DNA of 64,000 nucleotides from an uncultured bacterium (lineage in GTDB: Bacteria > Electryoneota > Tariuqbacteria > Tariuqbacterales > Tariuqbacteraceae), in the NCBI GenBank assembly GCA_964421875.1, contig CAYQZD010000002.1, positions 8,747 to 72,746 of the forward strand, written 5' to 3'. Below, in pieces: positions 6,409 to 60,702 of this stretch (positions are counted from its first letter, which is position 1; the number at the start of each line of letters is the position of its first letter). The position numbers and the translations under genes were made by a program. The notes under the pieces were generated by a model that worked only from the letters and a program-made list of their open reading frames with translations, made no database searches and was not told the DNA's origin.

Positions 6409-6804
6409 TTGCAGGTTATAATGTCGAGAAGGCATCACGATTGGATGGCGCAGGCCGAGGCTGATTTTAAGCACGCCGTTAATTCCAAGGAATGGGGCGA
6501 TTACGAATGGGCTTGCTTTGCGTCTCAGCAGGCGGCGGAAAAAGCGATAAAAGCCTTGATTGAGAGCAGAAATGGGAAAGCGATTGGTCACTCATTGAAA
6601 AAGTTACTCCAGCTTATTAATGTTGACGATAAGAATCTTATCGAAGCAGCTATAAGACTGGATAAACATTACATTCCCGCCCGATATCCTAATAGTTTCG
6701 ATTCCGGCGCTCCCAGTGATTATTATACTATCAAAGATGCTGAACAAGCGGTAATAGATGCGGAATCGATAATAAGGTATTGCCAAGACAATTTAGCAGG
6801 TTAA
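6409..6804 (+). CDS. HEPN-domain protein (putative toxin of a HEPN/MNT pair)
   Basis: ...QQAAEKAIKALI...RLDKHYIPARYP matches the HEPN domain pattern with an R-x(3-6)-H-like motif. Its stop overlaps the start of the nucleotidyltransferase gene. Confidence 0.7.
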   Translation: MQVIMSRRHHDWMAQAEADFKHAVNSKEWGDYEWACFASQQAAEKAIKALIESRNGKAIGHSLKKLLQLINVDDKNLIEAAIRLDKHYIPARYPNSFDSGAPSDYYTIKDAEQAVIDAESIIRYCQDNLAG

Positions 6805-7140
6805 ATGTCTTCGGAAACATATATTGAGTATCTTCGTAAAGAAGATGTAATCCCCATTGTTAAAGACGCCGCCGAGAAGATAAAAAAACTGCCTAATGTC
6901 TTGCGCATCGGATATTTTGGCTCCTTTGTCCGCAACGACCAGATTCCCGGTTCGGACATCGACATCTTCATCGAATTGGCGGATGATGACCGCAGATGGT
7001 TCGACCGGGCGGGGGATTTCATAGAATATTTTGATAAAGTCCCCTGCGTGGTGGAAATCTTCGCTTTTACCCGGCAGGAGATGTCGAATAAGGATAATAA
7101 GTTCTATCAAGAGGTTTTGCAGGAATTGGTTGAATTGTAA
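6805..7140 (+). CDS. Minimal nucleotidyltransferase (MNT) domain protein (putative antitoxin partner)
   Basis: GYFGSFVRNDQIPGSDIDIFIEL is the GS-x(n)-D-x-D Pol-beta-type NTase motif. 111 aa, directly follows the HEPN gene. Confidence 0.75.
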   Translation: MSSETYIEYLRKEDVIPIVKDAAEKIKKLPNVLRIGYFGSFVRNDQIPGSDIDIFIELADDDRRWFDRAGDFIEYFDKVPCVVEIFAFTRQEMSNKDNKFYQEVLQELVEL

Positions 7141-7237
7141 TGGTATAGCTTAGGATGGTAATTATATCCCGGAAAACTGTTTTAAAGTAGAGTACATACT
7201 AATTTGGACAATATGAAAACGTGGTGTGGCGATAATA

Positions 7238-8336
<1,099 letters not shown>

Positions 8337-9551: not shown

Positions 9552-10748
9552 ATGAATAAACTCACCATCGACGATATTGAACTTGTGGGAAAGCGGGCGC
9601 TGGTGCGGGTCGATTTCAATATTCCGTTGGATGAGAACGGCTCGATAACCGACGACCTCCGTATCCGAGCCAGTCTTCCCACTATTCGTAAGATAATCGA
9701 GTCCGGCGGGCGGGCTGTTTTAATGTCGCATATGGGCCGGCCCAAGGGTAAGGTCGTGCCTGAACTCAGGATGACGCCCGCGGCGCTGCGCTTGTCGGAG
9801 TATTTGAAGAAGGAAGTGAAGCTCGCTCCCGACTGCGTCGGCGCAGAGACATTGAATATAGCGGAAGGATTGACGGACGGCGAGGCGCTGCTGCTGGAAA
9901 ACCTCCGCTTTCACAAGGAAGAGACTGAGAACGATCCGGAATTCGCTCGGCAGCTGGCGGAATTGGGGGAGGTTTACATCAACGACGCCTTCGGCACCGC
10001 CCACCGGGCGCACGCTTCGACCGAAGGGATTACTCATTACCTTTCCCCCGCCGCAGCGGGTTACCTGATGGAGAAGGAAATTGAGTTCTTAGGGAGGGCT
10101 ATTGAGAATCCGCCTCATCCTTTTGTGGCGGTTTTAGGGGGCGCTAAGGTATCGGGCAAAGTGGAACTTATAGAACGGCTGATTGGGCGGGTGGACGCTA
10201 TTTTAGTAGGAGGGGGGATGTGCTTTACATTCCTGAAAGCCCAGGGCTTGAATGTGGGGGATTCACTGGTTGAAGAGGATTTAATTCAGACTGCTTCGGC
10301 TACACTATCCAAAGCCGCGGCTCAGGGAGCGGAGATGTCATTGCTGCAGGATGTGGTTATAGCCCGGGAGATTAGCGCTGAGACTGACGTTAAAACTGTG
10401 AGCGCAAATGAGATTGAAGCGGGATGGAAAGGTTTGGACATCGGACCGCGCACCGCTGAGTATTTCGCTGAGAGGATAGCGGGAGCGCAAACCGTGCTCT
10501 GGAACGGGCCGATGGGAGTTTTTGAAACCTCTCCCTTCGCCGGGGGAACGGAGAGGGTGGCTTTAGCGATGGCGGCGGCTACGCAGAATGGGGCGACCAC
10601 AGTTGTCGGGGGAGGGGACACTGCGGCCGCAGCCCGGAAATTCGGCGTCGATGCTAAGGTTTCGCACGTGTCCACCGGCGGCGGAGCCTCACTTGAGTTT
10701 TTAAGCGGTCTCAGCCTTCCGGGATTGGAGGCTTTGACTGATAAATAG
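9552..10748 (+). CDS. pgk: Phosphoglycerate kinase
   Basis: RVDFNIPLDENG...SHMGRPKG N-terminal motifs and GGGDTAAA C-terminal motif, 398 aa. Confidence 0.95.
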   Translation: MNKLTIDDIELVGKRALVRVDFNIPLDENGSITDDLRIRASLPTIRKIIESGGRAVLMSHMGRPKGKVVPELRMTPAALRLSEYLKKEVKLAPDCVGAETLNIAEGLTDGEALLLENLRFHKEETENDPEFARQLAELGEVYINDAFGTAHRAHASTEGITHYLSPAAAGYLMEKEIEFLGRAIENPPHPFVAVLGGAKVSGKVELIERLIGRVDAILVGGGMCFTFLKAQGLNVGDSLVEEDLIQTASATLSKAAAQGAEMSLLQDVVIAREISAETDVKTVSANEIEAGWKGLDIGPRTAEYFAERIAGAQTVLWNGPMGVFETSPFAGGTERVALAMAAATQNGATTVVGGGDTAAAARKFGVDAKVSHVSTGGGASLEFLSGLSLPGLEALTDK

Positions 10749-15163: not shown

Positions 15164-15390
15164 AATACAATTTTTAAATTTCGTTGAAATATAGTACTGA
15201 TTATTTTCAACTAAATTCGTGGGATAATATACACTAATTATAGGAAAAATGCAAATAGTAATAACGATATAATTAAAATTATTTGCATTATCACTGCTTT
15301 ATCAAGTTGCCTTTAGTTACTAATATGTTGAGAGTGTTGATAAATAACTTATGCTGTAACTTAATATTTATATTAACAAACACTTAGTCA

Positions 15391-16072
15391 TGTCATCCTG
15401 AACGAAGTGAAGGATCTCCATTTTTCAACAAGTATATAATTAACAAAGAGATTCTTCGCTTCGCTCAGAATGACAACGCTATCTATCAACGCTCTCATAT
15501 TAAGCGACTCAAACATAGTATTAATTAAAATGGATAATAGTGGACAGTGTAAGAACATAAAGGAATTTATCACCTGAATGTAGTGAAAGATTTCATCTTG
15601 TTTATTAACTTGAAATTAAGTATAGATTCTTCACTCCGCCTGCGGCGGGCTCAGAATGACAACATTAACGATGTACACTATTAAACGACGTGATTAATAT
15701 ATTTGGCTCTTCTCCATTTTAGTTGCAAGTATCAAGTACAAATCAAAGCTGGGGCATTAGCCCAAAAGAAGCGCGCTTGTCATTCCGAGCGAAAGCCGGA
15801 ATCCAGTTTTTTCTTAAAAGAGATTTTCCTGGACTCCCGCTTTCGCGGGAGTGACAACGTTTTGAGAATTAATCATCAGAGCAACGAGCGTTATTCCGAA
15901 AAGCAAGATATTTTGCAACTACTTTGGAGATGAACCATATATCTTATTAATCGAGCTTCATGCAAAAGTCAGGAATTTCCGAGTTTGTCATTCTGAACGT
16001 AGTAAAGAATCTATTGTTTATTAAGATGTTAGATAAAACTGAGACCCTTCACCTCGTTTAGGGTGACACTTC
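15391..16072. repeat. Array of four ~85-nt composite inverted-repeat (MITE-like) elements in an AT-rich non-coding region
   Basis: Elements at 15391-15476, 15571-15663, 15778-15858 and 15986-16072. Each has a ~27-nt arm TGTCA-NNN-TGAACGAAGTGAA-N'N'N'-TC, a ~30-nt AT-rich spacer, and the inverted arm. The NNN/N'N'N' positions covary (TCC/GGA, TTC/GAA, CCC/GGG, TTCCG/CGGAA). Confidence 0.75.
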
Positions 16073-16470
16073 GTGCCGATTTTTACCAGTAATTCAATCG
16101 AATAAATTAATGCGAGACCAATTGTAGATAAGTCTCATTTTCAGTAAAACGGAAATGCGATTAATATTATATGAAGTTAAGCAAAAAGGTTGTCATTATT
16201 TACCCACTTTGACGCGTGAAATTTTGAAATTTTAATCTAAAAAACTTAAATTAATTAGATTATCCCTCATAGGAGGATTTCGGCTGCGATTTCGCATCCC
16301 GAAAGATGAAAATATATGCTTTTCAAGGAAGCGGTAAGACCATTTTTCAAAGCGAAATCAGGTCTTCGCCCGATTAATCGAGCTAAAGCCCTGGCTTTAC
16401 AGAAAAAGACTCTTGGTAGATAAGGACTTAACCATAGGTCTGCCGCTATTAACAGTGAAATAAATGGAAT

Positions 16471-17787
16471 ATGCCGCAGAGTGATATAAGTTCCGGAGTT
16501 ATGGGATCCGGCGTGGTGGGAGCCGGAGGCGCCGGATTTCCTTCACACCTGAAACTCAAAGCGGCGGTGGACACGGTAATCGGCAATGGGATTGAGTGTG
16601 AACCGCTGTTGTCTCAGGATAGGGCGGTGATGGTTCACCGTCCCGAAACCGTAATCAAGGGACTGAGTTTACTGGCTGAAGTTGTGGGGGCGCGGAGAAA
16701 GATAATCGTTCTCAAGAAGAAGTATGCCGACGCGATGCGGGCGCTGGAACCTTTCTGCGATGAGTGTGAAATCATCTTGACGCCGGATTATTACCCCGCC
16801 GGCGACGAAGTCGAGATTGTGAAATTCCTCAGCGGCGAAACTGTCCCCGAAGCCGGGCTCCCTCTCGATGTCGGTGTGGTGGTCAACAATGTGGAAACCC
16901 TAACGAACATCGCCCGCGCCTGCGAGGGTATCCCCGTGACGCGCAGGTTCGTCACCGTCTGCGGTGAAGTAAAGAAACCAACGGTCCTAAGTGTTCCCCT
17001 CGGAACGAAAATCAGCGATATTGTGGACAGATGCGGGGGAGCGACCACGGACAATCCGGTCTATTACACCGGCGGGCCGATGATGGGGGAGATTGCCGGC
17101 GCCGATTCTCCGGCGCTGAAAACCACCACCGGCATCTTCGCGCTTCCCCAGGAACATGAGCTGGTCCGCGCCAGGTCGCTGCGGATGGAATACATCCTGC
17201 GCCAGGCGCAGTCCGCCTGCACCTCCTGCAGGCTCTGCACCGACGCCTGCCCCAGATACCTGCTGGGGCACGCAATCGAACCTCATCGCGTTATGCGCGC
17301 CATCGGCTTGACTCAGGATATATTCAAACGCGAACTCACCTCGGCTCTGTTATGCAGTGAATGCGGCGTTTGTGAATACGCCTGCCCTATGCGGCTATCT
17401 CCGCGAAGGATCTATCGGCAAATCAAAGAATATTTGGCCGCCGAGGGAATTGAGTATCCCCGCAGGATGACCAGACTCAGCGACCACCCGATGCGGGAAT
17501 CCCGCCGTATTCCCGGCGGGCGTCTGCTGGAAAGACTGGGGCTTAAGCGCTACGAGGTCCGGATGGACTACGACGATTCCGGCTGGTCTCCCCAGGAGGT
17601 CGCTCTTCCCCTCAAGCAGCATATCGGTCTTCCCGCGCAGCCGGTGGTCTCACCCGGAGACAGGGTGATTGAAGGAGAGGTGATAGCGGAAATTCCTCCT
17701 GGAGCGGTCAGCGCCCGGCTGCACGCTTCAATCGACGGTAAAGTGACGGCTGTTGACGATGACAAGATAATCATAGGGGCGGTATGA
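16471..17787 (+). CDS. PduS-like RnfC-family Fe-S flavoprotein (NADH-binding; two 4Fe-4S motifs)
   Basis: Begins almost directly with GVVGAGGAGFPSHLKL (NADH/FMN-binding motif shared by RnfC, PduS and NuoF) without the RnfC N-terminal barrel. SLBB-like region. CTSCRLCTDACP and CSECGVCEYACP ferredoxin motifs. 438 aa, matching PduS architecture. ATGA-coupled to a PduT-like gene. Confidence 0.7.
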   Translation: MPQSDISSGVMGSGVVGAGGAGFPSHLKLKAAVDTVIGNGIECEPLLSQDRAVMVHRPETVIKGLSLLAEVVGARRKIIVLKKKYADAMRALEPFCDECEIILTPDYYPAGDEVEIVKFLSGETVPEAGLPLDVGVVVNNVETLTNIARACEGIPVTRRFVTVCGEVKKPTVLSVPLGTKISDIVDRCGGATTDNPVYYTGGPMMGEIAGADSPALKTTTGIFALPQEHELVRARSLRMEYILRQAQSACTSCRLCTDACPRYLLGHAIEPHRVMRAIGLTQDIFKRELTSALLCSECGVCEYACPMRLSPRRIYRQIKEYLAAEGIEYPRRMTRLSDHPMRESRRIPGGRLLERLGLKRYEVRMDYDDSGWSPQEVALPLKQHIGLPAQPVVSPGDRVIEGEVIAEIPPGAVSARLHASIDGKVTAVDDDKIIIGAV

Positions 17788-18350
17788 ATCCATTCGAAGA
17801 GAAAAAAAACGCGCTGGGGATGGTGGAGTGGAACTCTATCGCCCTGGGAATTTTCGCCGCCGACGCGATGCTCAAAGTCTCCGAAGTGGAATTGATTTAC
17901 GCCAACACTATCTGTCCCGGTAAATACATTTGCGTGGTCAGAGGCGATGTGGCGGCGGTGAAGGCTTCGGTGGAAGCGGGAAAGGACGCTTCACCTGTGA
18001 GTGTGGTGGATGAGATGGTGATTCCCAATCTGCACTCCACGGTATTCCCCGCCATCAACTCCCTCACTTGCGCGGAGAAGGTCGACGCGGTGGGCATCAT
18101 CGAGACCTTTTCCGCAGCTTCAGCTTTGGTGGCGGCGGATCGAGCCGCTAAGACCGCGGAAATTCTACTGCTATCGGTGAGGCTGGCAACCGGATTGGGG
18201 GGGAAGTCTTTCGTGGTGGTGACCGGGGAAGTGGCGGCGGTGCGTTCTGCAGTGGAAGCCGGCGCGCGAACCGCTGAAGACAAGGGGCTGCTGGTGTATC
18301 GAACGGTGGTGCCTCAGCCGGAGCCCCGCTTGTTTGAAAAATTGAATTAG
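17784..18350 (+). CDS. Tandem BMC-domain shell protein, PduT-like (BMC-T with a conserved Fe-S-ligating Cys)
   Basis: Two BMC domains: ALGMVEWNSIALGIFAADAMLKVSEVELI...VVRGDVAAVKASVEAG and AVGIIETFSAASALVAADRAAKTAEI...VVVTGEVAAVRSAVEAG. TICPGKY matches the PduT cluster-ligating Cys strand. C-terminal GLLVYRTVVPQP matches the PduT tail. 188 aa. Confidence 0.8.
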   Translation: MNPFEEKKNALGMVEWNSIALGIFAADAMLKVSEVELIYANTICPGKYICVVRGDVAAVKASVEAGKDASPVSVVDEMVIPNLHSTVFPAINSLTCAEKVDAVGIIETFSAASALVAADRAAKTAEILLLSVRLATGLGGKSFVVVTGEVAAVRSAVEAGARTAEDKGLLVYRTVVPQPEPRLFEKLN

Positions 18351-18387: not shown

Positions 18388-18729
18388 ATGAAAATGAACG
18401 TTAGGGAACATGAACAGTTCGTAGTGGTAGAACTCAAGGGAAAGATTATGGGAGGACCTGACGCCACGGTTTTTCACGATATGCTTAAGGAATTAATCGC
18501 CCAAGGCCGGCGGCGGTTCATCTTAGATTTGAACAAGGTTGACTGGATGAACAGTTCCGGTCTCGGTATCCTGATTTCCGGGATGACTACTATCCGCAGC
18601 GCTCAGGGGGAACTGAAATTAGCCAGAATCTCGAATAAAATCAAGAGCCTGCTGATGATTACCAAACTGATCACAGTATTTGACAGCTATGAAACGGTAG
18701 AGGACGCCGCCGCCAGTTTCGCTAAATAA
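18388..18729 (+). CDS. STAS-domain anti-sigma-factor antagonist (SpoIIAA/RsbV-like)
   Basis: 113 aa. ...ILDLNKVDWMNSSGLGILI... STAS pattern with the conserved phospho-Ser region. Confidence 0.8.
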   Translation: MKMNVREHEQFVVVELKGKIMGGPDATVFHDMLKELIAQGRRRFILDLNKVDWMNSSGLGILISGMTTIRSAQGELKLARISNKIKSLLMITKLITVFDSYETVEDAAASFAK

Positions 18730-18805
18730 TCCCGGGTATTCAGAGAAAATTTATTCAGAGAACAAAAGCATCAATTGACGGCTGCTTAATGAGGTCCTAT
18801 TCGCG

Positions 18806-20188
18806 GTGAGTGAGATTATCGATTTACTGCAATCGGTCCGCCTTGGCGTTGCTGATTTTTCCGGCAAGCTCTTATCCAAGGAGGATTCGGAGGACTGCGC
18901 GTTTCTGGTAAAGCGCGTGGAAACGGGCTTGCTCCGAGCTGTCGAACTGACTCAAGAGCACGAGCGCAGGGACCGGCTCTTCGATGAGCTTTACTACAAT
19001 GTGGGCTCGAAACTCAACGCGACCTTCGACCAGAACGAGTTGCTTGATAACATCATAGATGCGCTGGGACAGCTTATAAGCTTCGATGCCGCCGGGATTT
19101 TCCTGGTAGATACGGATACCGGGAATATTGAGGCAGAAGTTATCAAGGGATACCGGAAAGAGTTCCTGGGCAGCGTGCATCAGAAAGTTGGCGAGGGCGT
19201 CCTCGGCTGGGTGATAGAAAGCGCCCAATCGGTCAGACTTGCCGACGTCCGAAATGACGACCGTTATATCGACGCCCGTCCCGAAACCCGTTCGGAGGTC
19301 GCGGCGCCGATGGTTAGCGAAGGTAAGGTGATTGGCTGTATCAACCTGGAAAGCGATAAAATCGCCGCCTTCAGCGAAGAGGATGTCGCCCTGCTGGAAA
19401 CATTCGCCACCCAGGCTTCGCTGGCGGTGCAGCGAGCCAGATTGTACCGTGAGTTAGTCGATACCAAGCGCTTGGAAGAGGAGGTGGCGCTGGCGAGGAA
19501 GATTCAGACCTCGCTTCTGCCCAAGAAGCCGCCTCAATTTCCGGGGTACGATCTGGCCGGAATGAACATTCCTTCAACTGAAGTCGGGGGAGATTATTAC
19601 GATTTCATTCGTTTAATAGGCGGGGGTTTGGGATTGGCAATCGCCGACGTCTCCGGCAAGGGAATCGGAGCCGCGTTTATTATGTCCGGCGTGAGGGCTT
19701 CGCTCAGGGCGGAAATCCGTCACAACCTTGACCCCAGTATGTTGATGCACAAAGTCAATCACTTTGTTTATGAGAGCACCGACTCCGGCAGTTTCGTGAC
19801 CGCTTTCTACGGAGTTTTGAATGGCGATGAATTCAATTATGTCAACGCCGGACATAATCCGCCTATTTTGATGCGAGGCGACCAGAGTTTCATTATGCTG
19901 GAGGACGGCGGATTGGTGCTGGGGCTGGCGGAGGAACAGCATTTCCGCGAGGGGAGGATACATCTGGAACCGGGTGATACGCTATTGCTATACACCGATG
20001 GCGTGTCGGAGGCTATGAATCGTCAAGAGATGGAATTTGGCGCGGAACGTTTGATTGAGGCGTTAAAGGAATCTCAGGGAATGAGCGCCAATGTCAAGGT
20101 GGATTTCATCCACCGCAATGTAAGAGATTTCGCCGGCAGGTCGAAACAAGCGGATGATTTGACCATAATGGTGGTGAACAAAATATGA
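18806..20188 (+). CDS. GAF-domain PP2C-family serine phosphatase (RsbU/SpoIIE-like); GTG start
   Basis: N-terminal GAF (GVLGWVIESAQSVRLADVRNDDRY). C-terminal PP2C/SpoIIE domain (EVGGDYYDF, LGLAIADVSGKGIGAA, LLLYTDGVSEA, DDLTIMVV). Confidence 0.85.
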   Translation: MSEIIDLLQSVRLGVADFSGKLLSKEDSEDCAFLVKRVETGLLRAVELTQEHERRDRLFDELYYNVGSKLNATFDQNELLDNIIDALGQLISFDAAGIFLVDTDTGNIEAEVIKGYRKEFLGSVHQKVGEGVLGWVIESAQSVRLADVRNDDRYIDARPETRSEVAAPMVSEGKVIGCINLESDKIAAFSEEDVALLETFATQASLAVQRARLYRELVDTKRLEEEVALARKIQTSLLPKKPPQFPGYDLAGMNIPSTEVGGDYYDFIRLIGGGLGLAIADVSGKGIGAAFIMSGVRASLRAEIRHNLDPSMLMHKVNHFVYESTDSGSFVTAFYGVLNGDEFNYVNAGHNPPILMRGDQSFIMLEDGGLVLGLAEEQHFREGRIHLEPGDTLLLYTDGVSEAMNRQEMEFGAERLIEALKESQGMSANVKVDFIHRNVRDFAGRSKQADDLTIMVVNKI

Positions 20189-20625
20189 GAGAGGTCGAAA
20201 AATTGGTAATTCCCTCAGACCAGGATGAACTTCCCCGGGTCGACGAAGCCGCCGATAGAATCGCCAGGGAGATGGGTTTTAGCAAGGAGGAGCGCGATGA
20301 TATCGCTATTTCCGTATCAGAAGCGGTCAACAACGCTATCCTGCACGGCAATCGCGGCGACAAGAAGAAGAAGGTGATTATCACCTTCTTCAAGCGCGAT
20401 GATTCCCTGATAGTTAAAGTTAAGGACCAGGGCACCTGTTTCGATCCTGAGCGCGATTTACCTCAGGACCCCACCTCGCCGGATAATATTCTGAAGGAGA
20501 AAGGGCGGGGGGTTTTCATCGTGCGGCATTTGATGGACGAAGTAAGCTATAACTGCTCCTCCGACGGGACGGAGATGGTGATGGTCAAGTTGAAAACGCC
20601 CCGCGAAATTCTGTCTTCTAAGTAA
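20185..20625 (+). CDS. RsbW/SpoIIAB-type anti-sigma regulatory factor (Ser/Thr protein kinase, HATPase_c)
   Basis: 146 aa, EAVNNAILHGN N-box and GRGVFIVRHLMDEV G-box. Start overlaps the phosphatase stop. Confidence 0.8.
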   Translation: MREVEKLVIPSDQDELPRVDEAADRIAREMGFSKEERDDIAISVSEAVNNAILHGNRGDKKKKVIITFFKRDDSLIVKVKDQGTCFDPERDLPQDPTSPDNILKEKGRGVFIVRHLMDEVSYNCSSDGTEMVMVKLKTPREILSSK

Positions 20626-20696
20626 TGAAAGAAAATAACACAACCGTGGTGCCGGGTCTCCGCATTCGGCGCCAAATAATAATTATTATTGAATAT

Positions 20697-20722
20697 GCTG
20701 TCGACTGCGGAGAGTCGACAGC
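20697..20722. terminator. Hairpin (family C REP-like) plus T-run after the partner-switching operon
   Basis: GCTGTCGACT-gcggag-AGTCGACAGC followed by ACACTTTT. Confidence 0.45.
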
Positions 20723-20771
20723 ACACTTTTAGTATTTGGGCGAAGGCCCCTTTAGAAACCGCTAAGTTACT

Positions 20772-20813
20772 AACTTGCGGACTTGTAAACTTGTCAACTT
20801 GTTAACTTATTCT
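20772..20813. promoter_or_regulatory. Five tandem copies of the octamer ACTTGTNA upstream of the 3-hydroxyacyl-CoA dehydrogenase gene
   Basis: aacttgcgg/acttgtaa/acttgtca/acttgtta/acttattc. The same octamer also repeats at 57519-57556. Confidence 0.35.
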
Positions 20814-20830: not shown

Positions 20831-21784
20831 ATGGTCAATCAAGAGTTCGAAGAAATAATAGGCAAACCGCTGGAGATTGACGATAAGGATCCCCAGAATC
20901 TGGTTCAAGCCGGTATGGTTGGCGCTGGGACTATGGGTCAGGGCATAGCCCAGTTAATGGCTCAGAACGGAATCGATGTGCTGTTGGTGGAGAAGGATAA
21001 GGAATCGTTGGAACGCTCCCTCCAGGAGTTGGCTGAGAGTATGGATCGTGAAATCAGGCGTTGGGGAATGACCGCCTCGGAAAAACGAGCGGTGCTCTCC
21101 CGTATCGTGGGCACCGTAGATTACGAAGAACTGGGAAGAGTCCCTTTGATAATCGAATCTGTCCCGGAAGACCTGAAAATCAAGCAGGATTTATTTCAGC
21201 ATATCGATGAGGTCTGCCGTGAAGACGCCATTTTAGTCTCCAACACCTCAACCCTCAGCCTTTCGGAAATCGCCGCGGTGACCAGCCGCCCGGAAAATGT
21301 CATCGGTATGCACTTTATGAATCCGGTGACCAAAACTACATTGGTGGAAGTTATCCGCGGCTTGAAAACTGCGGAAACCACTTTCAATTATATCAAAGGC
21401 TTCGCCGAGCGCATCAACAAAGTGGTGGTGGAAGTCTACGAATATCCGGGATACGTAACTACCCGGATAATCATTCCTATGCTCAACGAGGCGATGTATG
21501 TTTTAATGGAGGGTGTCGCCACCGCCGAAGGTATCGACACCGCGATGAAGCTGGGCTACAACCTGAATTTCGGTCCCCTGGAATTTGCCGACATAATGGG
21601 GCTGGATGAAGTGATGAAATGGATGGAAACACTGTTCCACGAGCTGGGCGACCTTAAATACCGGCCCTGCCCCCTGCTGAGGAAACTGGTTAGAGCCGGG
21701 CACCTGGGTAAAAAGACCGGCGCAGGATTCTTCAAATACGACAAGGATGGCAACAAGATCAAGAGCCCGGGTTTAGGGATTTAA
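20831..21784 (+). CDS. 3-hydroxyacyl-CoA / 3-hydroxybutyryl-CoA dehydrogenase
   Basis: GMVGAGTMGQGIAQ Rossmann motif and NTSTLSLSEIAA...GMHFMNPV; C-terminal 3HCDH domain. Confidence 0.85.
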   Translation: MVNQEFEEIIGKPLEIDDKDPQNLVQAGMVGAGTMGQGIAQLMAQNGIDVLLVEKDKESLERSLQELAESMDREIRRWGMTASEKRAVLSRIVGTVDYEELGRVPLIIESVPEDLKIKQDLFQHIDEVCREDAILVSNTSTLSLSEIAAVTSRPENVIGMHFMNPVTKTTLVEVIRGLKTAETTFNYIKGFAERINKVVVEVYEYPGYVTTRIIIPMLNEAMYVLMEGVATAEGIDTAMKLGYNLNFGPLEFADIMGLDEVMKWMETLFHELGDLKYRPCPLLRKLVRAGHLGKKTGAGFFKYDKDGNKIKSPGLGI

Positions 21785-21947: not shown

Positions 21948-23180
21948 ATGAAAATACTGATTCTCAACTGCGGTTCCTCCTCCGTGAAATATCAGTTGAT
22001 GGATATGACCGAGAGGAAGGCGCTGGCCAAGGGATTAGTGGAGCGTATCGGGATGAGGGGAGCCATCCTCACGCACTACCGCTATGACGGGGATAAAGTG
22101 AAAATAGCCGGGGAAATCATCGACCATCAGATGGCTATAGAATTCATCCTCGGAATTCTGCTGTCTCCCAATCACGGAGTGATAAAAGATCGGAGGGAAA
22201 TCGAAGCGGTGGGGCACCGCGTGGTTCACGGCGGCGAAAGGTTCACCGGCTCGGTGCTCATCAACGCCGATGTAATGGAGGGACTGCATGACTGCATCGA
22301 CCTGGCGCCCCTGCACAATCCCCACAACATCAAAGGCATCCGCGCCTGCCAGCGGCTGCTGCCCGGATTGCCGATGGTGGGGGTGTTCGACACCGCTTTT
22401 CATAGCACCCTACCGGATTATGCTTTTACCTACGGTATACCCTATCTGCTATACAAACGATACTCCCTCCGCCGCTTCGGCTTTCACGGAACCTCCCACT
22501 ACTATGTGTCCCAGGAAGCGGCTAAAATGATGGATAAGCCCATTACCGAATTGAAAATGATTACCTGCCATCTGGGAAACGGCTGCAGCGCCGCCGCTGT
22601 GGATAAAGGCCGGTCGGTCGATACCACGATGGGATTCACCCCGGTGGAAGGGCTGCTGATGGGTACCAGGTGCGGAGATTTGGACCCCAGCGCCATTTTG
22701 TACATCATCAGCCGCGAAGAGCTGACTATGGGAGAAGCTAACGCGCTTATGAATAAGCATTCCGGGATGCAGGGCATCTCCGGCGTATCCTCCGATATGC
22801 GGGAAATCCTGGAAGAAACTAATAACGGCAATAAGCGCGCCGAACTCGCTTTGGATGTATTCTGCTATCGTTTGAAGAAATATATCGGCTCCTACGCTGT
22901 CGCGATGAGCGGTTTGGACGCCATCATTTTCACCGGCGGTATCGGCGAGAAAGCCGCTGAAGTGCGCCGCCGCACCCTGCAGGGGATGGAATTCCTCGGC
23001 GTGAAACTCGACGAGGAGAAAAACGCCGCCTCAAAAGGTGAACAAGGCATCGTTTCCACCGAAGATTCCAGTGTCTCCGTGCTCGTTATTCCCACTAACG
23101 AAGAGTTGGTGATTGCGATTGACACTGAAAGAATCGTTAAGGAAATTAAAACGGAAACCGCCGCTGCAACGGAAAAGTAA
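21948..23180 (+). CDS. ackA: Acetate kinase
   Basis: MKILILNCGSSSVKYQL, HRVVHGGE, ITCHLGNG(C)S and FTGGIGE motifs. Confidence 0.9.
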   Translation: MKILILNCGSSSVKYQLMDMTERKALAKGLVERIGMRGAILTHYRYDGDKVKIAGEIIDHQMAIEFILGILLSPNHGVIKDRREIEAVGHRVVHGGERFTGSVLINADVMEGLHDCIDLAPLHNPHNIKGIRACQRLLPGLPMVGVFDTAFHSTLPDYAFTYGIPYLLYKRYSLRRFGFHGTSHYYVSQEAAKMMDKPITELKMITCHLGNGCSAAAVDKGRSVDTTMGFTPVEGLLMGTRCGDLDPSAILYIISREELTMGEANALMNKHSGMQGISGVSSDMREILEETNNGNKRAELALDVFCYRLKKYIGSYAVAMSGLDAIIFTGGIGEKAAEVRRRTLQGMEFLGVKLDEEKNAASKGEQGIVSTEDSSVSVLVIPTNEELVIAIDTERIVKEIKTETAAATEK

Positions 23181-34742: not shown

Positions 34743-35876
34743 ATGAATTACAAGGTGTTGTTGGTTGATGACGACCAAACCATCCTTAAACTCTTCTCGG
34801 CTTATCTGGAAGCGCAGGGAATGGATGTTACCGAAGCTTCCGACGGATTGGATGCGCTTGAAGTGTTGAAGCAGGAAGAATTCGACCTGTTGGTTACTGA
34901 CATCAGGATGCCGAAGATGACCGGTATTGAATTGATACGCAGAAGCCGCGAGTATCAGCCGGATTTACCCTCGGTGATTGTTTCCGGAGAGGGAACTTTG
35001 TCGGAAGCCGCGGAAGCGGTGAACCTCAAGGTCCAATACTACCTGGAAAAACCGGTGGACAATCTCAGCACCCTGAAAGAGGTGCTGCTCGAAGCGGTTA
35101 AATCTGACCGGAAGAGTCTGGAAAGAAGAATTAAAAAACTGGAGGAGGAGCGGGAACTCTATCGCAGAGTCCTACGCGATGTGTACCGCCTGCCGACATT
35201 AGGCCCCATCGCAGTGGGTTTGGCGCATAACCTCAATAGCCCCTTGGGTGGGATAATAGGTTATACTCAACTGGGTAAGATGAAGAATCCGCAGCTTGAA
35301 GTGTTCGGCACTATAGACGGTCAAGCTAAAAAAATATCTAATTCCCTCAACGAAATTGCGGACAAGGGCAAAGCGGAAAACAACACTCAACCGGAAGAGA
35401 TTAACCTCAAAAGACTGGTGCAGAGCGAGGTCGAGTTTCTCAATTATAATCTGTTTTTCAAACACCAGGTTGAGTTCAGTCTGAAGTTGGAGGATGTGCC
35501 GCAAATTATGGGCACATATTTCCATTTCTCGCTGTGCTTGCATCACATTCTTCAAAATGCGCGAGACGCCGTCTTCAATTCCGAAAAAAAGTCCGTCGTG
35601 ATATCAACCAGTCATCAAGATGGAATAATCCTGCTAAAAGTGTCGGATACCGGCGTAGGGATTCCCCAAGAAAATATGGATAAGCTTTTCGAACCGGGTT
35701 TCTCCTCCAAACCCCTTCCCGCCCAAGTCTCCGCTCCTGAAATCCCCTCGGGCTATGGCCTCGGTCTAAGCATTGTCAAGGAATTACTGGAAAGCTACGG
35801 CGCGGAAATCTCGATTGAAAGCAAAGTGGAAGCAGGAACCAAGGTTAAGGTAAAAATTCCGGTCGAAAAGAAATAA
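34743..35876 (+). CDS. Hybrid response-regulator receiver / histidine kinase (REC-HisKA-HATPase)
   Basis: N-terminal REC domain (VLLVDDD...LVTDIRMPKMTG). Phospho-acceptor His in GLAHNLNSPL. C-terminal HATPase (DTGVGI, GYGLGLSI). Confidence 0.75.
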   Translation: MNYKVLLVDDDQTILKLFSAYLEAQGMDVTEASDGLDALEVLKQEEFDLLVTDIRMPKMTGIELIRRSREYQPDLPSVIVSGEGTLSEAAEAVNLKVQYYLEKPVDNLSTLKEVLLEAVKSDRKSLERRIKKLEEERELYRRVLRDVYRLPTLGPIAVGLAHNLNSPLGGIIGYTQLGKMKNPQLEVFGTIDGQAKKISNSLNEIADKGKAENNTQPEEINLKRLVQSEVEFLNYNLFFKHQVEFSLKLEDVPQIMGTYFHFSLCLHHILQNARDAVFNSEKKSVVISTSHQDGIILLKVSDTGVGIPQENMDKLFEPGFSSKPLPAQVSAPEIPSGYGLGLSIVKELLESYGAEISIESKVEAGTKVKVKIPVEKK

Positions 35877-42190: not shown

Positions 42191-42276
42191 TTATTCGCCT
42201 GCTGTGTATTATTAATTGTCCTGAAAATAAGTCTGCAAGTCTGTAAGTCTTCAAGTATTTAAGTCAGAAAAAAATT

Positions 42277-57194: not shown

Positions 57195-57470
57195 GAGAAT
57201 GCCCCGAATCTGTCATTCCCGCGCAGGCGGGAATCCGGAGCGTGGGCTGCAAGCGAGGACTTGATAATGTGCCCGCCGGGTCCCCGCACCCGGCGGTATG
57301 AGATTCAGCTCTGCAATATGCGTTATGTTATGCCTTTAGCGCTGCGGATACTACCGTGCTGTCGAGTCTCCGCACTCGACAGCTAACCATTGAAAAACCT
57401 CGTGCCGCAGACTCCCCGCAATTTGTCCGAGAATGCCCCGAATCTGTCATTCCCGCGGCCAGTGCGCCGT
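57195..57470. repeat. REP-like cluster with two ~45-nt direct repeats (gagaatgccccgaatctgtcattcccgcg) plus C' and C variants
   Basis: Copies at 57195-57243 (with hairpin TTCCCGCgcagGCGGGAA) and 57424-57458. CCGCCGGGTccccgcACCCGGCGG at 57272-57295. GCTGTCGAGTctccgcACTCGACAGC at 57357-57383. Confidence 0.75.
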
Positions 57471-60499: not shown

Positions 60500-60702
60500 G
60501 TGCCCGCCGGGTCCCCGCACCCGGCGGCATTGAACGGCGGATTTCTCGTTCCCACGCTCCCGCGTGGGAATACAGACATATCTGCTGTCGACTCTCCGTA
60601 GTCTAAAGCATATTCAGTATTAATAATAACTTAAATAAACGTTTTCGTAGGGTGGGTTCTTAACCCACCAATTTACAAGTCATTCCGGCGCAGCCGGAAT
60701 CC
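60500..60702. repeat. Mosaic REP-like cluster (C', E, B, A)
   Basis: CCGCCGGGTccccgcACCCGGCGG (60503-60526); TTCCCACGCtcccGCGTGGGAA (60548-60569); GTAGGGTGGGTTcttAACCCACC (60647-60669); gtcATTCCGGCgcaGCCGGAATcc (60679-60702). Confidence 0.8.

Follow-up and report, generated by a model that had tools for sequence, protein, structure and literature searches.

RsbW-type anti-sigma factors are mostly encoded next to the gene of their own sigma factor. A gene set of the partner-switching type, located in a stretch of DNA of 64 kb (hereafter the window) from an uncultured bacterium related to Ca. Tariuqbacter (Electryoneota, FCB group), has other neighbours: genes encoding a PduS-like oxidoreductase and a PduT-like shell protein precede it, and a gene of fermentative metabolism follows. 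This raises the question of what such a switch controls, and whether the adjacent genes are part of it. The reading favoured here, with a probability of roughly 0.6, is an autonomous, sigma-less partner-switching cassette with an unlinked target, whose position behind the PduS/PduT genes is inherited and does not define a functional unit. Orphan cassettes of this sort are an already known kind.

A complete partner-switching gene set

The earlier note had described a complete set of STAS, GAF-PP2C and RsbW-type genes at positions 18388-20625 (+). Three ORFs with exactly these boundaries were found, and the set is confirmed by domain matches and by catalytic and phospho-acceptor motifs, all of which are intact and conserved. 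Since independent assemblies carry exact called copies of the three genes, and orthologues at 51-73% identity retain all of them, these are real genes and not chance ORFs.

The first gene (18388..18729, +) encodes a single-domain STAS protein of 113 aa, of the RsbV/SpoIIAA switch type (Pfam STAS, 3e-14), which scores 67.3 bits against the NCBIfam model of the anti-sigma-factor-antagonist superfamily (TIGR00377), i.e. above its cut-off of 53.45. Its phospho-acceptor, Ser56, lies within the sequence WMNSSGLG, at the place of the phosphorylatable serine of the DSxGLG motif; it aligns with the serine of DSTGLG in RsbV and is invariant in 10 orthologues and homologues. The nearest solved relatives of the protein are TM1442 and Bacillus subtilis RsbV.

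The second gene (18806..20188, +) encodes a GAF-PP2C sensor phosphatase of 460 aa (Pfam GAF_2, 3.7e-22; SpoIIE/PP2C, 2.2e-48). An AF2 model (mean pLDDT 88.2) shows an N-terminal helical hairpin (helices at residues 2-72), a GAF domain (76-190), a long linker helix (191-237) and a PPM/PP2C domain of the SpoIIE/RsbU type (248-459), an architecture that matches the general model of RsbU-type phosphatases, GAF-linked ones included, in which a sensor is joined by a coiled linker to the PPM domain (PMC12143880). The acidic motifs GGDYYD, DVSGKG, TDG and DD.T, with the metal-binding aspartates of this subfamily, are invariant in 25 homologues, and the top fold matches are Pseudomonas aeruginosa RssB, the RsbU domain of Rv1364c, SpoIIE and SiaA. 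The GAF domain matches those of NifA, PtsP, DosS and Lcd1, but all of these matches are too weak and non-specific to narrow down a ligand.

The third gene (20185..20625, +) encodes a small GHKL serine kinase of the RsbW/SpoIIAB type (146 aa; HATPase_c_2, 5.5e-27), a putative anti-sigma-like switch kinase, whose best PDB match is B. subtilis RsbW (6m36, 5.8e-14). Its N-box (E46/N50), G1 box (D81-x-G83-x-x-F86) and G2 box (G107-x-G109) are invariant in 9 homologues and in RsbW. The protein nevertheless stays under the NCBIfam equivalog cut-offs for RsbW and SpoIIAB (72.5 vs 145 for PRK04069, 64 vs 155 for TIGR01924 and 53 vs 135 for TIGR01925). Its 183 homologues consist, without exception, of a single domain (about 121-165 aa), and a 'Rosetta stone' search among them yielded no fusions.

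In the predicted cycle, the GAF domain would sense a cytoplasmic ligand or a redox cue, and the long linker helix would relay the signal, turning on the PPM domain, which in turn would strip the phosphate put on Ser56 of the STAS protein by the RsbW-like kinase. The unphosphorylated STAS protein would bind the kinase, and another partner of the kinase or of the STAS protein would be released or engaged. This output partner is expected to be encoded away from the cassette and would most likely be a transcription-level regulator, i.e. a sigma factor or an anti-sigma factor such as FlgM.

Sigma factors and other candidate outputs

A Pfam scan of 40 ORFs of the window detected no Sigma70 domain; the other ORFs of a size that would suit a sigma factor were judged from their N-terminal sequence only. 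Likewise, the gene listings of ten related loci (L003, L005, L102, L103, L104, L015, L098, L100, L016 and L105) contain no sigma factor up to a distance of about 7-8 kb from the module. The earlier observation that no sigma gene stands beside the module thus holds here and in every related locus examined; as it is based on a 64-kb window and on incomplete MAGs, it is local evidence. At the genome level, the MAG of the related Ca. Tariuqbacter arcticus lists 4 RsbV-like, 3 RsbW-like and 6 RsbU/P-like genes, as well as ECF and sigma-54 genes. KO matches to SigB, SigF-type or FliA sigma factors are absent from it, but the same KO table also lacks RpoD and is therefore incomplete or thresholded.

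A sigma factor encoded elsewhere is a possible, if tentative, target. In such a classical anti-sigma switch the kinase would sequester sigma-28/FliA, an ECF or the primary sigma factor, and the dephosphorylated STAS protein would free it. The closeness of the kinase to B. subtilis RsbW, the STAS score above the superfamily cut-off and the ECF and sigma-54 genes of the related MAG are all consistent with this, and there is a precedent in Chlamydia, where an Rsb-type switch has been proposed to act on the unlinked primary sigma factor (PMC8256260). Its probability is lowered by the kinase scores, which fall far short of the equivalog thresholds for RsbW and SpoIIAB, by the KO table of the related MAG, by the ten loci with no linked sigma gene and by the absence here of the usual arrangement of RsbW next to its sigma factor.

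More doubtful is that the STAS protein itself is the output, in the style of SypA, RbaV or HsbA. The kinase and the phosphatase would then set its phosphorylation, and the unphosphorylated form would bind a non-sigma partner, possibly FlgM. The STAS protein is the best conserved of the three (72-73% identity within the class and 50-56% across lineages; the phosphatase reaches 59% and the kinase 51-61% within the class), which fits extra binding constraints, although small proteins can be strongly conserved for other reasons. The P. aeruginosa STAS protein PA3347 provides a precedent for binding of the anti-sigma-28 factor FlgM (PMC8256260), and L003, L005, L103 and Ca. T. arcticus carry flgM at a distance of one to three genes on the upstream side of pduS. 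However, the triads of the sister group and of Calditrichota have no flgM nearby, and tblastn searches of the window with the FlgM, FliS, FliD, FliC and AAA proteins of relatives revealed neither FlgM nor a flagellar gene, and indeed no match at all.

Separability of the cassette from its neighbours

The gene at 16471-17787 (+) encodes a PduS-like flavo-Fe-S oxidoreductase with Complex1_51K, SLBB and Fer4_17 domains and, at the C-terminus (residues 373-432), RnfC_N, which is the PduS-type order. Its identification as RnfC of an Rnf complex was rejected, as no genes for Rnf membrane subunits (RnfD/G/E/A/B) are located nearby and RnfC_N is not N-terminal. The following gene (17784-18350, +) encodes a PduT-like tandem-BMC shell protein (BMC-T) with two BMC stretches (3.1e-46), which matches solved PduT at 2e-44 to 7e-52, aligns with PduT structures 3n79/3pac and with 3nwg, and retains the pore cysteine of TICPGK, while scoring below the TIGR02526 equivalog cut-off (128.7 vs 250.3). 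The ORFs examined in the window include neither BMC-H nor BMC-P, and neither an aldehyde dehydrogenase nor a signature enzyme, so that they lack the shell genes and core enzymes that together make up a microcompartment locus; Ca. T. arcticus, a relative, has two copies of EutM as well as EutN, located on other contigs of its MAG. The PduS/PduT pair is most plausibly a satellite locus.

The five genes from PduS to the kinase are co-directional, with gaps of -4, 37, 76 and -4 bp. The tight spacing reported earlier is correct, including the 37 bp between the BMC-T and STAS genes and the 4-bp overlap (ATGA) between the stop codon of the phosphatase gene and the start codon of the kinase gene, which can be read directly in the sequence. 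Terminator-like sites were found between none of these genes in the window, the 37-bp gap included. Given the common direction, the short gaps and the lack of such sites, co-expression of the triad with PduS/PduT is possible, and the five genes may share one transcript in this genome.

The unit probably ends behind the kinase gene, where a hairpin at 20696..20723 (+), with an 11-bp stem, the core GTCGACTGCGGAGAGTCGAC and a T-containing tail, forms a probable terminator or REP-like element. It ranks top among the terminator-like sites in the 15.1-27 kb region and is the only one on the plus strand between 16.4 and 20.8 kb. Two further copies of its core, at 57361 and 60587, lie on the minus strand, both 3' of a gene (0 occurrences expected by chance), and in the relative L005 the same hairpin is found directly 3' of the kinase gene. 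In the window it divides the kinase gene from the next gene, which the earlier note had given as a 3-hydroxyacyl-CoA dehydrogenase and which was found to encode 3-hydroxybutyryl-CoA dehydrogenase (hbd). An Rfam scan of the whole window gave nothing at gathering thresholds, which argues against a riboswitch upstream of pduS; PADLOC gave no defence-system match for the five proteins, and the AACTTG repeat arrays did not generalise across loci.

Comparison with relatives separates the cassette from the pair. All class relatives whose contigs reach far enough keep the order PduS–BMC-T–STAS–PP2C–kinase–Hbd–AckA–NfnAB–YceD–PlsX–FabH, so that the adjacency sits within at least 13 kb of class-level synteny running into fatty-acid synthesis (housekeeping) genes. 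The gap between the BMC-T and STAS genes varies among them from 27 to 718 bp, the latter in L005, where the triad has its own upstream repeat array. The triad occurs in the same order (STAS–GAF-PP2C–kinase) in the Tariuqbacteria-class loci L003, L005, L007, L102 and L103 and, in the absence of PduS/PduT, in a sister group with 471-482-aa phosphatases (L015, L098 and L100), in a locus of a Calditrichota MAG (L105) and in L016, whose phosphatase is a 590-aa GAF-GAF protein. The flanking genes differ between these four groups; in the sister group, for instance, a coaD-like gene and pta come next after the triad. Conversely, PduS–BMC-T pairs with no triad are present in L009 (KSB1), L013 (Elusimicrobiota) and the full microcompartment loci L010, L011 and L014; a genome scan with the BMC-T protein returned 8 loci only. 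A metagenome scan with the 25-sequence phosphatase alignment returned, among the matches listed, only distant GAF-PP2C paralogues (at most 44% identity) and no orthologues, and PduS/BMC-T accompanied none of 80 such loci listed; PduS/BMC-T is thus not generally tied to GAF-PP2C genes.

Because the same triad recurs beside other genes in several related phyla of uncultured bacteria, its position beside PduS/PduT looks inherited rather than functional. As far as the evidence goes, PduS and PduT are neighbours that are possibly co-transcribed, and not part of the switch. A conserved neighbourhood, proposed earlier as a test, was indeed observed: all relatives with a phosphatase identity of 51-61% retain the adjacency, contig permitting. 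A functional link would predict likewise.

It is unlikely that the switch is tied to the PduS/PduT electron conduit or a microcompartment (through shell redox traffic or expression), or that it controls Hbd or AckA, as the earlier note had suggested in proposing that the module is co-regulated with the Fe-S pair or governs the adjacent fermentative genes. The tight co-directional arrangement with no internal terminator-like site and the adjacency in class relatives are in line with this idea, as is the fact that the genes for PduS and acetate kinase turn up repeatedly as accessories of microcompartment loci (PMC4207490), of which L011 is an example, and that the triad of the sister lineage is followed by pta, another gene of the acetate pathway. 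However, the triad and the pair part outside the class, the gap between them is variable in length, the adjacency is embedded in long housekeeping synteny and the strong hairpin intervenes before hbd; in addition, the literature search found no paper linking partner switching to microcompartments. Functional coupling of the triad with PduS/PduT is unsupported, and neither co-regulation with the Fe-S pair nor control of the fermentative genes is borne out.

A narrower version is quite improbable. The presence of PduS, PduT and AckA here, and of the triad beside pta in the sister lineage, could mean that the switch couples a metabolic signal, sensed by the GAF domain, either to the passage of electrons through the pore of PduT or to the metabolism of acetyl phosphate, thereby regulating post-translationally a microcompartment-linked redox and acetate module in a remnant or satellite locus. 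If true, this would make it the first partner switch with a link to a bacterial organelle, and bacterial microcompartments would gain a new level of regulation if the switch controlled the shell redox pair PduS/PduT.

The HATPase_c_2 fold of RsbW is also that of RsbT, and RsbS, like RsbV, belongs to the STAS proteins. A stressosome-type input module (RsbR/RsbS/RsbT) with the kinase as RsbT-like activator of the phosphatase would fit these two folds, but it is very improbable: here and in relatives there is one STAS gene, single-domain, and no multi-domain STAS protein resembling RsbR, the matches of the single-domain protein are RsbV, SpoIIAA and TM1442, with a DSSGLG site, and the phosphatase has its own GAF sensor in place of an RsbU-type N-terminal RsbT-binding domain.

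The preferred reading, an autonomous cassette with an unlinked target, has some wider implications. Orphan partner switches are common and the outputs of most are obscure. Here, a compact and conserved STAS–GAF-PP2C–kinase cassette is defined, which is common to Electryoneota/Tariuqbacteria, Calditrichota and at least two further FCB-group lineages, and which supplies a clean orthologous set for finding unlinked targets by phylogenetic profiling or complex prediction. It also calls for caution, as function is not readable from adjacency in lineages with long-range synteny.

Comparison with known systems

The PduS-type domain set and the tandem-BMC protein with its TICPGK cysteine are shared with the PduS–PduT redox pair of microcompartments, for which a role in carrying electrons through the shell has been proposed, but the pair in the window stands alone.

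In B. subtilis, the genes are arranged in the order RsbU–V–W–SigB. The RsbV–RsbW–RsbU/RsbP (sigma-B) and SpoIIAA–SpoIIAB–SpoIIE (sigma-F) switches of this bacterium consist of the same three protein types as the cassette, which retains the phospho-serine motif, the N, G1 and G2 boxes of the kinase and the acidic motifs of the PPM domain; its best solved matches are RsbW/RsbV (6m36), SpoIIAB/SpoIIAA and SpoIIE. In contrast, no sigma-B/sigma-F gene was found in the operon or window, the kinase and STAS protein lie under the equivalog cut-offs, the order is V–U–W and the sensor is a single GAF domain.

Clostridioides difficile RsbZ and other GAF-linked PPM phosphatases (PMC12143880) have in common with the present one that one or more GAF sensor domains are joined to PPM by a long helical linker. 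RsbZ, however, carries GAF domains in tandem and acts on a sigma-B system that is linked to it (PMC12143880), whereas the phosphatase described here has one GAF domain following a helical hairpin, and no linked sigma gene.

Further parallels in organisation are sigma-less or non-canonical partner switches, the outputs of which are non-sigma, unlinked or obscure (PMC8256260; PMC3999984), and the suggestion that orphan modules can act on non-sigma targets agrees with these documented cases (PMC8256260). Bordetella BtrU/V/W, Rhodobacter RbaV/W/Y, Vibrio SypA/SypE, Pseudomonas PA3346/PA3347 (HsbR/HsbA–FlgM) and Chlamydia RsbU/V/W likewise combine STAS, kinase and PP2C components with no adjacent cognate sigma factor, a likeness at the level of component types. 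In Vibrio SypE and Pseudomonas HsbR the kinase and phosphatase are fused, whereas they are encoded by separate genes in the present cassette, which further differs from these systems in its GAF input and in its lineage, the Electryoneota of the FCB group.

Organization of the locus and integrity of the switch proteins

The locus lies on the forward strand and opens with a gene for a PduS-type flavo-Fe-S protein (16471-17787, 438 aa; Complex1_51K, SLBB and Fer4_17 domains and a C-terminal RnfC_N barrel) and one for a tandem-BMC (BMC-T) shell protein (17784-18350, 188 aa). These are followed by the triad, i.e. (i) a STAS protein of 113 aa (18388-18729), scoring above the cut-off of the TIGR00377 anti-sigma-antagonist superfamily, (ii) a 460-aa GAF and SpoIIE/PP2C phosphatase with a GTG start (18806-20188) and (iii) a 146-aa HATPase_c_2 kinase (20185-20625). 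Next come genes for a 3-hydroxybutyryl-CoA dehydrogenase (hbd; 20831-21784, 317 aa) and an acetate kinase (ackA; 21948-23180, 410 aa). The STAS gene is separated by 76 bp from the phosphatase gene, whose stop codon shares an ATGA with the kinase start. Given these ORF coordinates, gaps and domain assignments (Pfam, NCBIfam), the gene set, order and spacing described in the earlier note proved accurate in every particular.

All three switch proteins look active. In the STAS protein, which can be aligned with B. subtilis RsbV, SpoIIAA and Thermotoga TM1442, Ser56 (in WMNSSGLG) sits in the RsbV phospho-serine column, which is invariant in an alignment of 10 homologues from 4 lineages. The kinase, whose nearest match is B. 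subtilis RsbW (6m36, 5.8e-14), retains the N-box (E46, N50), G1 (D81-x-G83-x-x-F86) and G2 (G107-x-G109). The phosphatase motifs GGDYYD, DVSGKG, TDG and DD.T are present in 25 of 25 aligned homologues, and its AlphaFold2 model (mean pLDDT 88.2) has four parts: a helical hairpin (residues 2-72), a GAF domain (76-190), a linker helix of 47 residues (191-237) and a PPM domain (248-459). In fold it most closely matches P. aeruginosa RssB, the Rv1364c RsbU domain, SpoIIE and SiaA. A coiled linker joining a sensor to the PPM domain is the arrangement given as general among RsbU-type phosphatases, GAF-linked ones included (PMC12143880), and it is found here too. Assignment to the RsbW, SpoIIAB or SpoIIAA equivalogs was rejected, the scores being well under the curated cut-offs.

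Transcription units and conserved gene order

No terminator-like sites were found on the forward strand at 16.4-20.6 kb, and co-transcription of pduS and pduT with the triad is plausible in this genome. The best terminator-like site of the region is a hairpin with an 11-bp stem (20696-20723), 70 nt past the kinase stop; because of it, the kinase gene is probably the last of a transcription unit here, with hbd separate. The hairpin core GTCGACTGCGGAGAGTCGAC has three copies in the window (20700-20719 on the plus strand, 57361-57380 and 60587-60606 on the minus strand), each located 3' of a gene and in that gene's orientation (0 expected by chance), and it also follows the kinase gene of the class relative L005 (approximately 9835-9860), even though the two kinases share just 51% identity. 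It has the look of a terminator or REP-like element common to the lineage. In other relatives the kinase-hbd spacer carries GC-rich palindromes of another sequence (TGTAGGGGC...GCCCCTAC). In L103 this gap is only 29 bp, and therefore even the kinase/hbd boundary varies among relatives. Five tandem AACTTGNN octamers (20772-20809) lie 22 nt ahead of the start of hbd. This array occurs nowhere else in the window, where chance predicts 0.19 matches, and may bind a regulator or serve as a promoter element. A weaker ACTTG..ACTTATT match is present upstream of purM (42226-42240, minus strand).

The class Tariuqbacteria belongs to the phylum Electryoneota/AABM5-125-24 in the FCB group (PMC10439189). 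By the BMC-T protein, the nearest genomes are Ca. Tariuqbacter arcticus (83% identity on contig JABMRZ010000224) and, at 79%, a Black Sea MAG. Phosphatase orthologues of 51-61% identity were found on the class contigs L003, L005, L007, L102 and L103, and a closer relative, L104, was reached through its kinase (72% identity). The adjacency of the triad to PduS/PduT was upheld by the conserved-neighbourhood check, as the order PduS–BMC-T–STAS–PP2C–kinase occurs in every class relative whose contig extends far enough upstream. Downstream, the relatives share Hbd–AckA–NfnA–NfnB–YceD–PlsX–FabH with the window. Since the adjacency forms just one stretch of a class-level synteny that spans at least 13 kb and runs into housekeeping fatty-acid genes, its conservation tells little about function. 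The BMC-T-to-STAS spacer, 37 bp in the window, is 94, 718, 94, 226 and 27 bp in relatives, and the 718-bp spacer (L005) has, shortly before the STAS gene, an array of about four CAACTTG units (7553-7573) akin to the AACTTGNN octamers, which argues for an independent promoter there.

Upstream of pduS, a 1.3-kb AT-rich non-coding stretch (15164-16470) holds several 'TTGTCATTCYGARCG...GAATC' repeat copies in both orientations, which generate spurious ORFs. It coincides with a synteny break, where relatives have FliC–FliD–FliS–FlgM and the window instead has genes for a T9SS beta-helix protein and HTH proteins on the opposite strand. The pfkA/gap interval (6409-7140) carries a toxin-antitoxin-like pair, possibly HEPN/nucleotidyltransferase as judged from sequence alone, and the hbd/ackA interval of L003 (10990-12860) carries NTase/HepT and HicAB pairs; such small pairs mark variable spots in the otherwise conserved synteny. 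In L102, a relative at 51% identity, the kinase gene (6748-7152) is split into calls of 29 and 83 aa on a contig with 3.5x coverage; the split reflects either a frameshift that made it a pseudogene or a fault in the assembly. A 377-aa hybrid REC–HisKA–HATPase_c protein with an N-terminal receiver and no obvious sensor domain is encoded at 34743-35876, beside an acyl-CoA dehydrogenase gene and trxB.

Sigma factor genes and the output of the switch

Pfam scanning of 40 window ORFs, comprising most of those of sigma-factor size (approximately 170-340 aa) and every ORF with an N-terminal sequence of unclear identity, revealed no Sigma70 domain, and precomputed Pfam lists of 10 related loci contained no sigma gene within approximately 7-8 kb either side of the module. 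The absence of an adjacent sigma gene, as originally noticed, was thus borne out, and the view of the module as an orphan partner switch is supported. The KO table of Ca. T. arcticus (PMC10439189 supplement) includes 4 RsbV-like, 3 RsbW-like and 6 RsbU/P-like proteins, together with 6 ECF sigmas and 2 sigma-54 matches. It has no entries for SigB, SigF-type or FliA; RpoD is missing as well, and therefore the table is incomplete or thresholded and the absence of the former three is suggestive only. Many flagellar genes are listed for this MAG, yet no FliA KO.

Going by the conserved parts and by what is established for partner switches, the kinase would phosphorylate Ser56 of the STAS protein, the GAF-regulated PPM phosphatase would remove this phosphate, and the unphosphorylated STAS protein would bind the kinase, the output being an alternative partner of either the STAS protein or the kinase. 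This output is not encoded in cis, and three readings of it remain: the kinase may hold a sigma factor encoded at an unlinked locus, the STAS protein may act as effector in its own right, like SypA, RbaV or HsbA (PMC8256260), or the switch may be linked to PduS/PduT or the fermentative genes, as taken up in the next section. An effector role is consistent with the STAS protein being the best conserved of the three, and with flgM (anti-sigma-28) preceding pduS by one to three genes, close to the triad and on its strand, in four relatives (L003 4797-5300; L005 2091-2588; L103 295-711; Ca. T. arcticus k141_3068177 gene 4). There is a parallel in P. aeruginosa, whose STAS protein PA3347 binds FlgM (PMC8256260). 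However, the window contains no flagellar genes and other lineages show no flgM link.

Relation to microcompartment and fermentative genes

Alignment shows the BMC-T protein to be of genuine PduT type (7e-52 with 3nwg and 2e-44 with PduT 3n79; TICPGK cysteine aligned). Because the ORFs examined in the 64-kb window included no BMC-H, BMC-P or any other shell gene (nor an aldehyde dehydrogenase or signature enzyme), and EutM (two copies) and EutN are encoded on other contigs of Ca. T. arcticus, the PduS/PduT pair is probably a satellite, with the microcompartment locus it belongs to lying elsewhere in the genome. Such satellites have been described (PMC4207490).

Outside the class, the same triad occurs in the same order (proteins 41-56% identical) among other neighbours. 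In a sister group (L015, L098 and L100; phosphatases of 471-482 aa) it lies between MatE and a small CTP_transf_like (coaD-like) gene, which always follows the triad (L015 8842-11579; L098 8867-12641; L100 7913-8398) and in L015 and L098 is followed by a DRTGG-type phosphate acetyltransferase gene (pta). In the window's lineage acetate kinase is encoded two genes past the triad, and acetate-pathway proximity recurs across both lineages. The triad of a Calditrichota MAG (L105) is flanked by genes for a T9SS-tailed protein and a SpoU methylase, while within the GAF-GAF phosphatase group it is loosely spaced and adjoins a second PP2C and SurA in L016 (590-aa phosphatase), and in L017 no STAS or kinase gene is found nearby. 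Kinase homologues, all single-domain, were named from Zixibacteria, Calditrichota and Bacteroidota. Conversely, PduS–BMC-T occurs without the triad, alone in KSB1 (L009) and Elusimicrobiota (L013) MAGs and within ordinary microcompartment loci of Bacillota and Coatesbacteria (L010, L011 and L014), and neither PduS nor BMC-T was near any of the 80 more distant GAF-PP2C loci among the matches listed.

A tie between the switch and PduS/PduT or the fermentative genes would fit the position of ackA here and of pta in the sister group, and PduS and AckA are recurrent microcompartment ancillaries (PMC4207490), but this reading is weakened by the separate occurrence of the parts and has a low probability. 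With the parts separable and their adjacency lying within the class-level synteny, the co-regulation with the Fe-S pair or control of the adjacent fermentative genes suggested in the earlier note is not supported as a functional coupling. The orphan module adds one more system to the well-known partner-switch kind.
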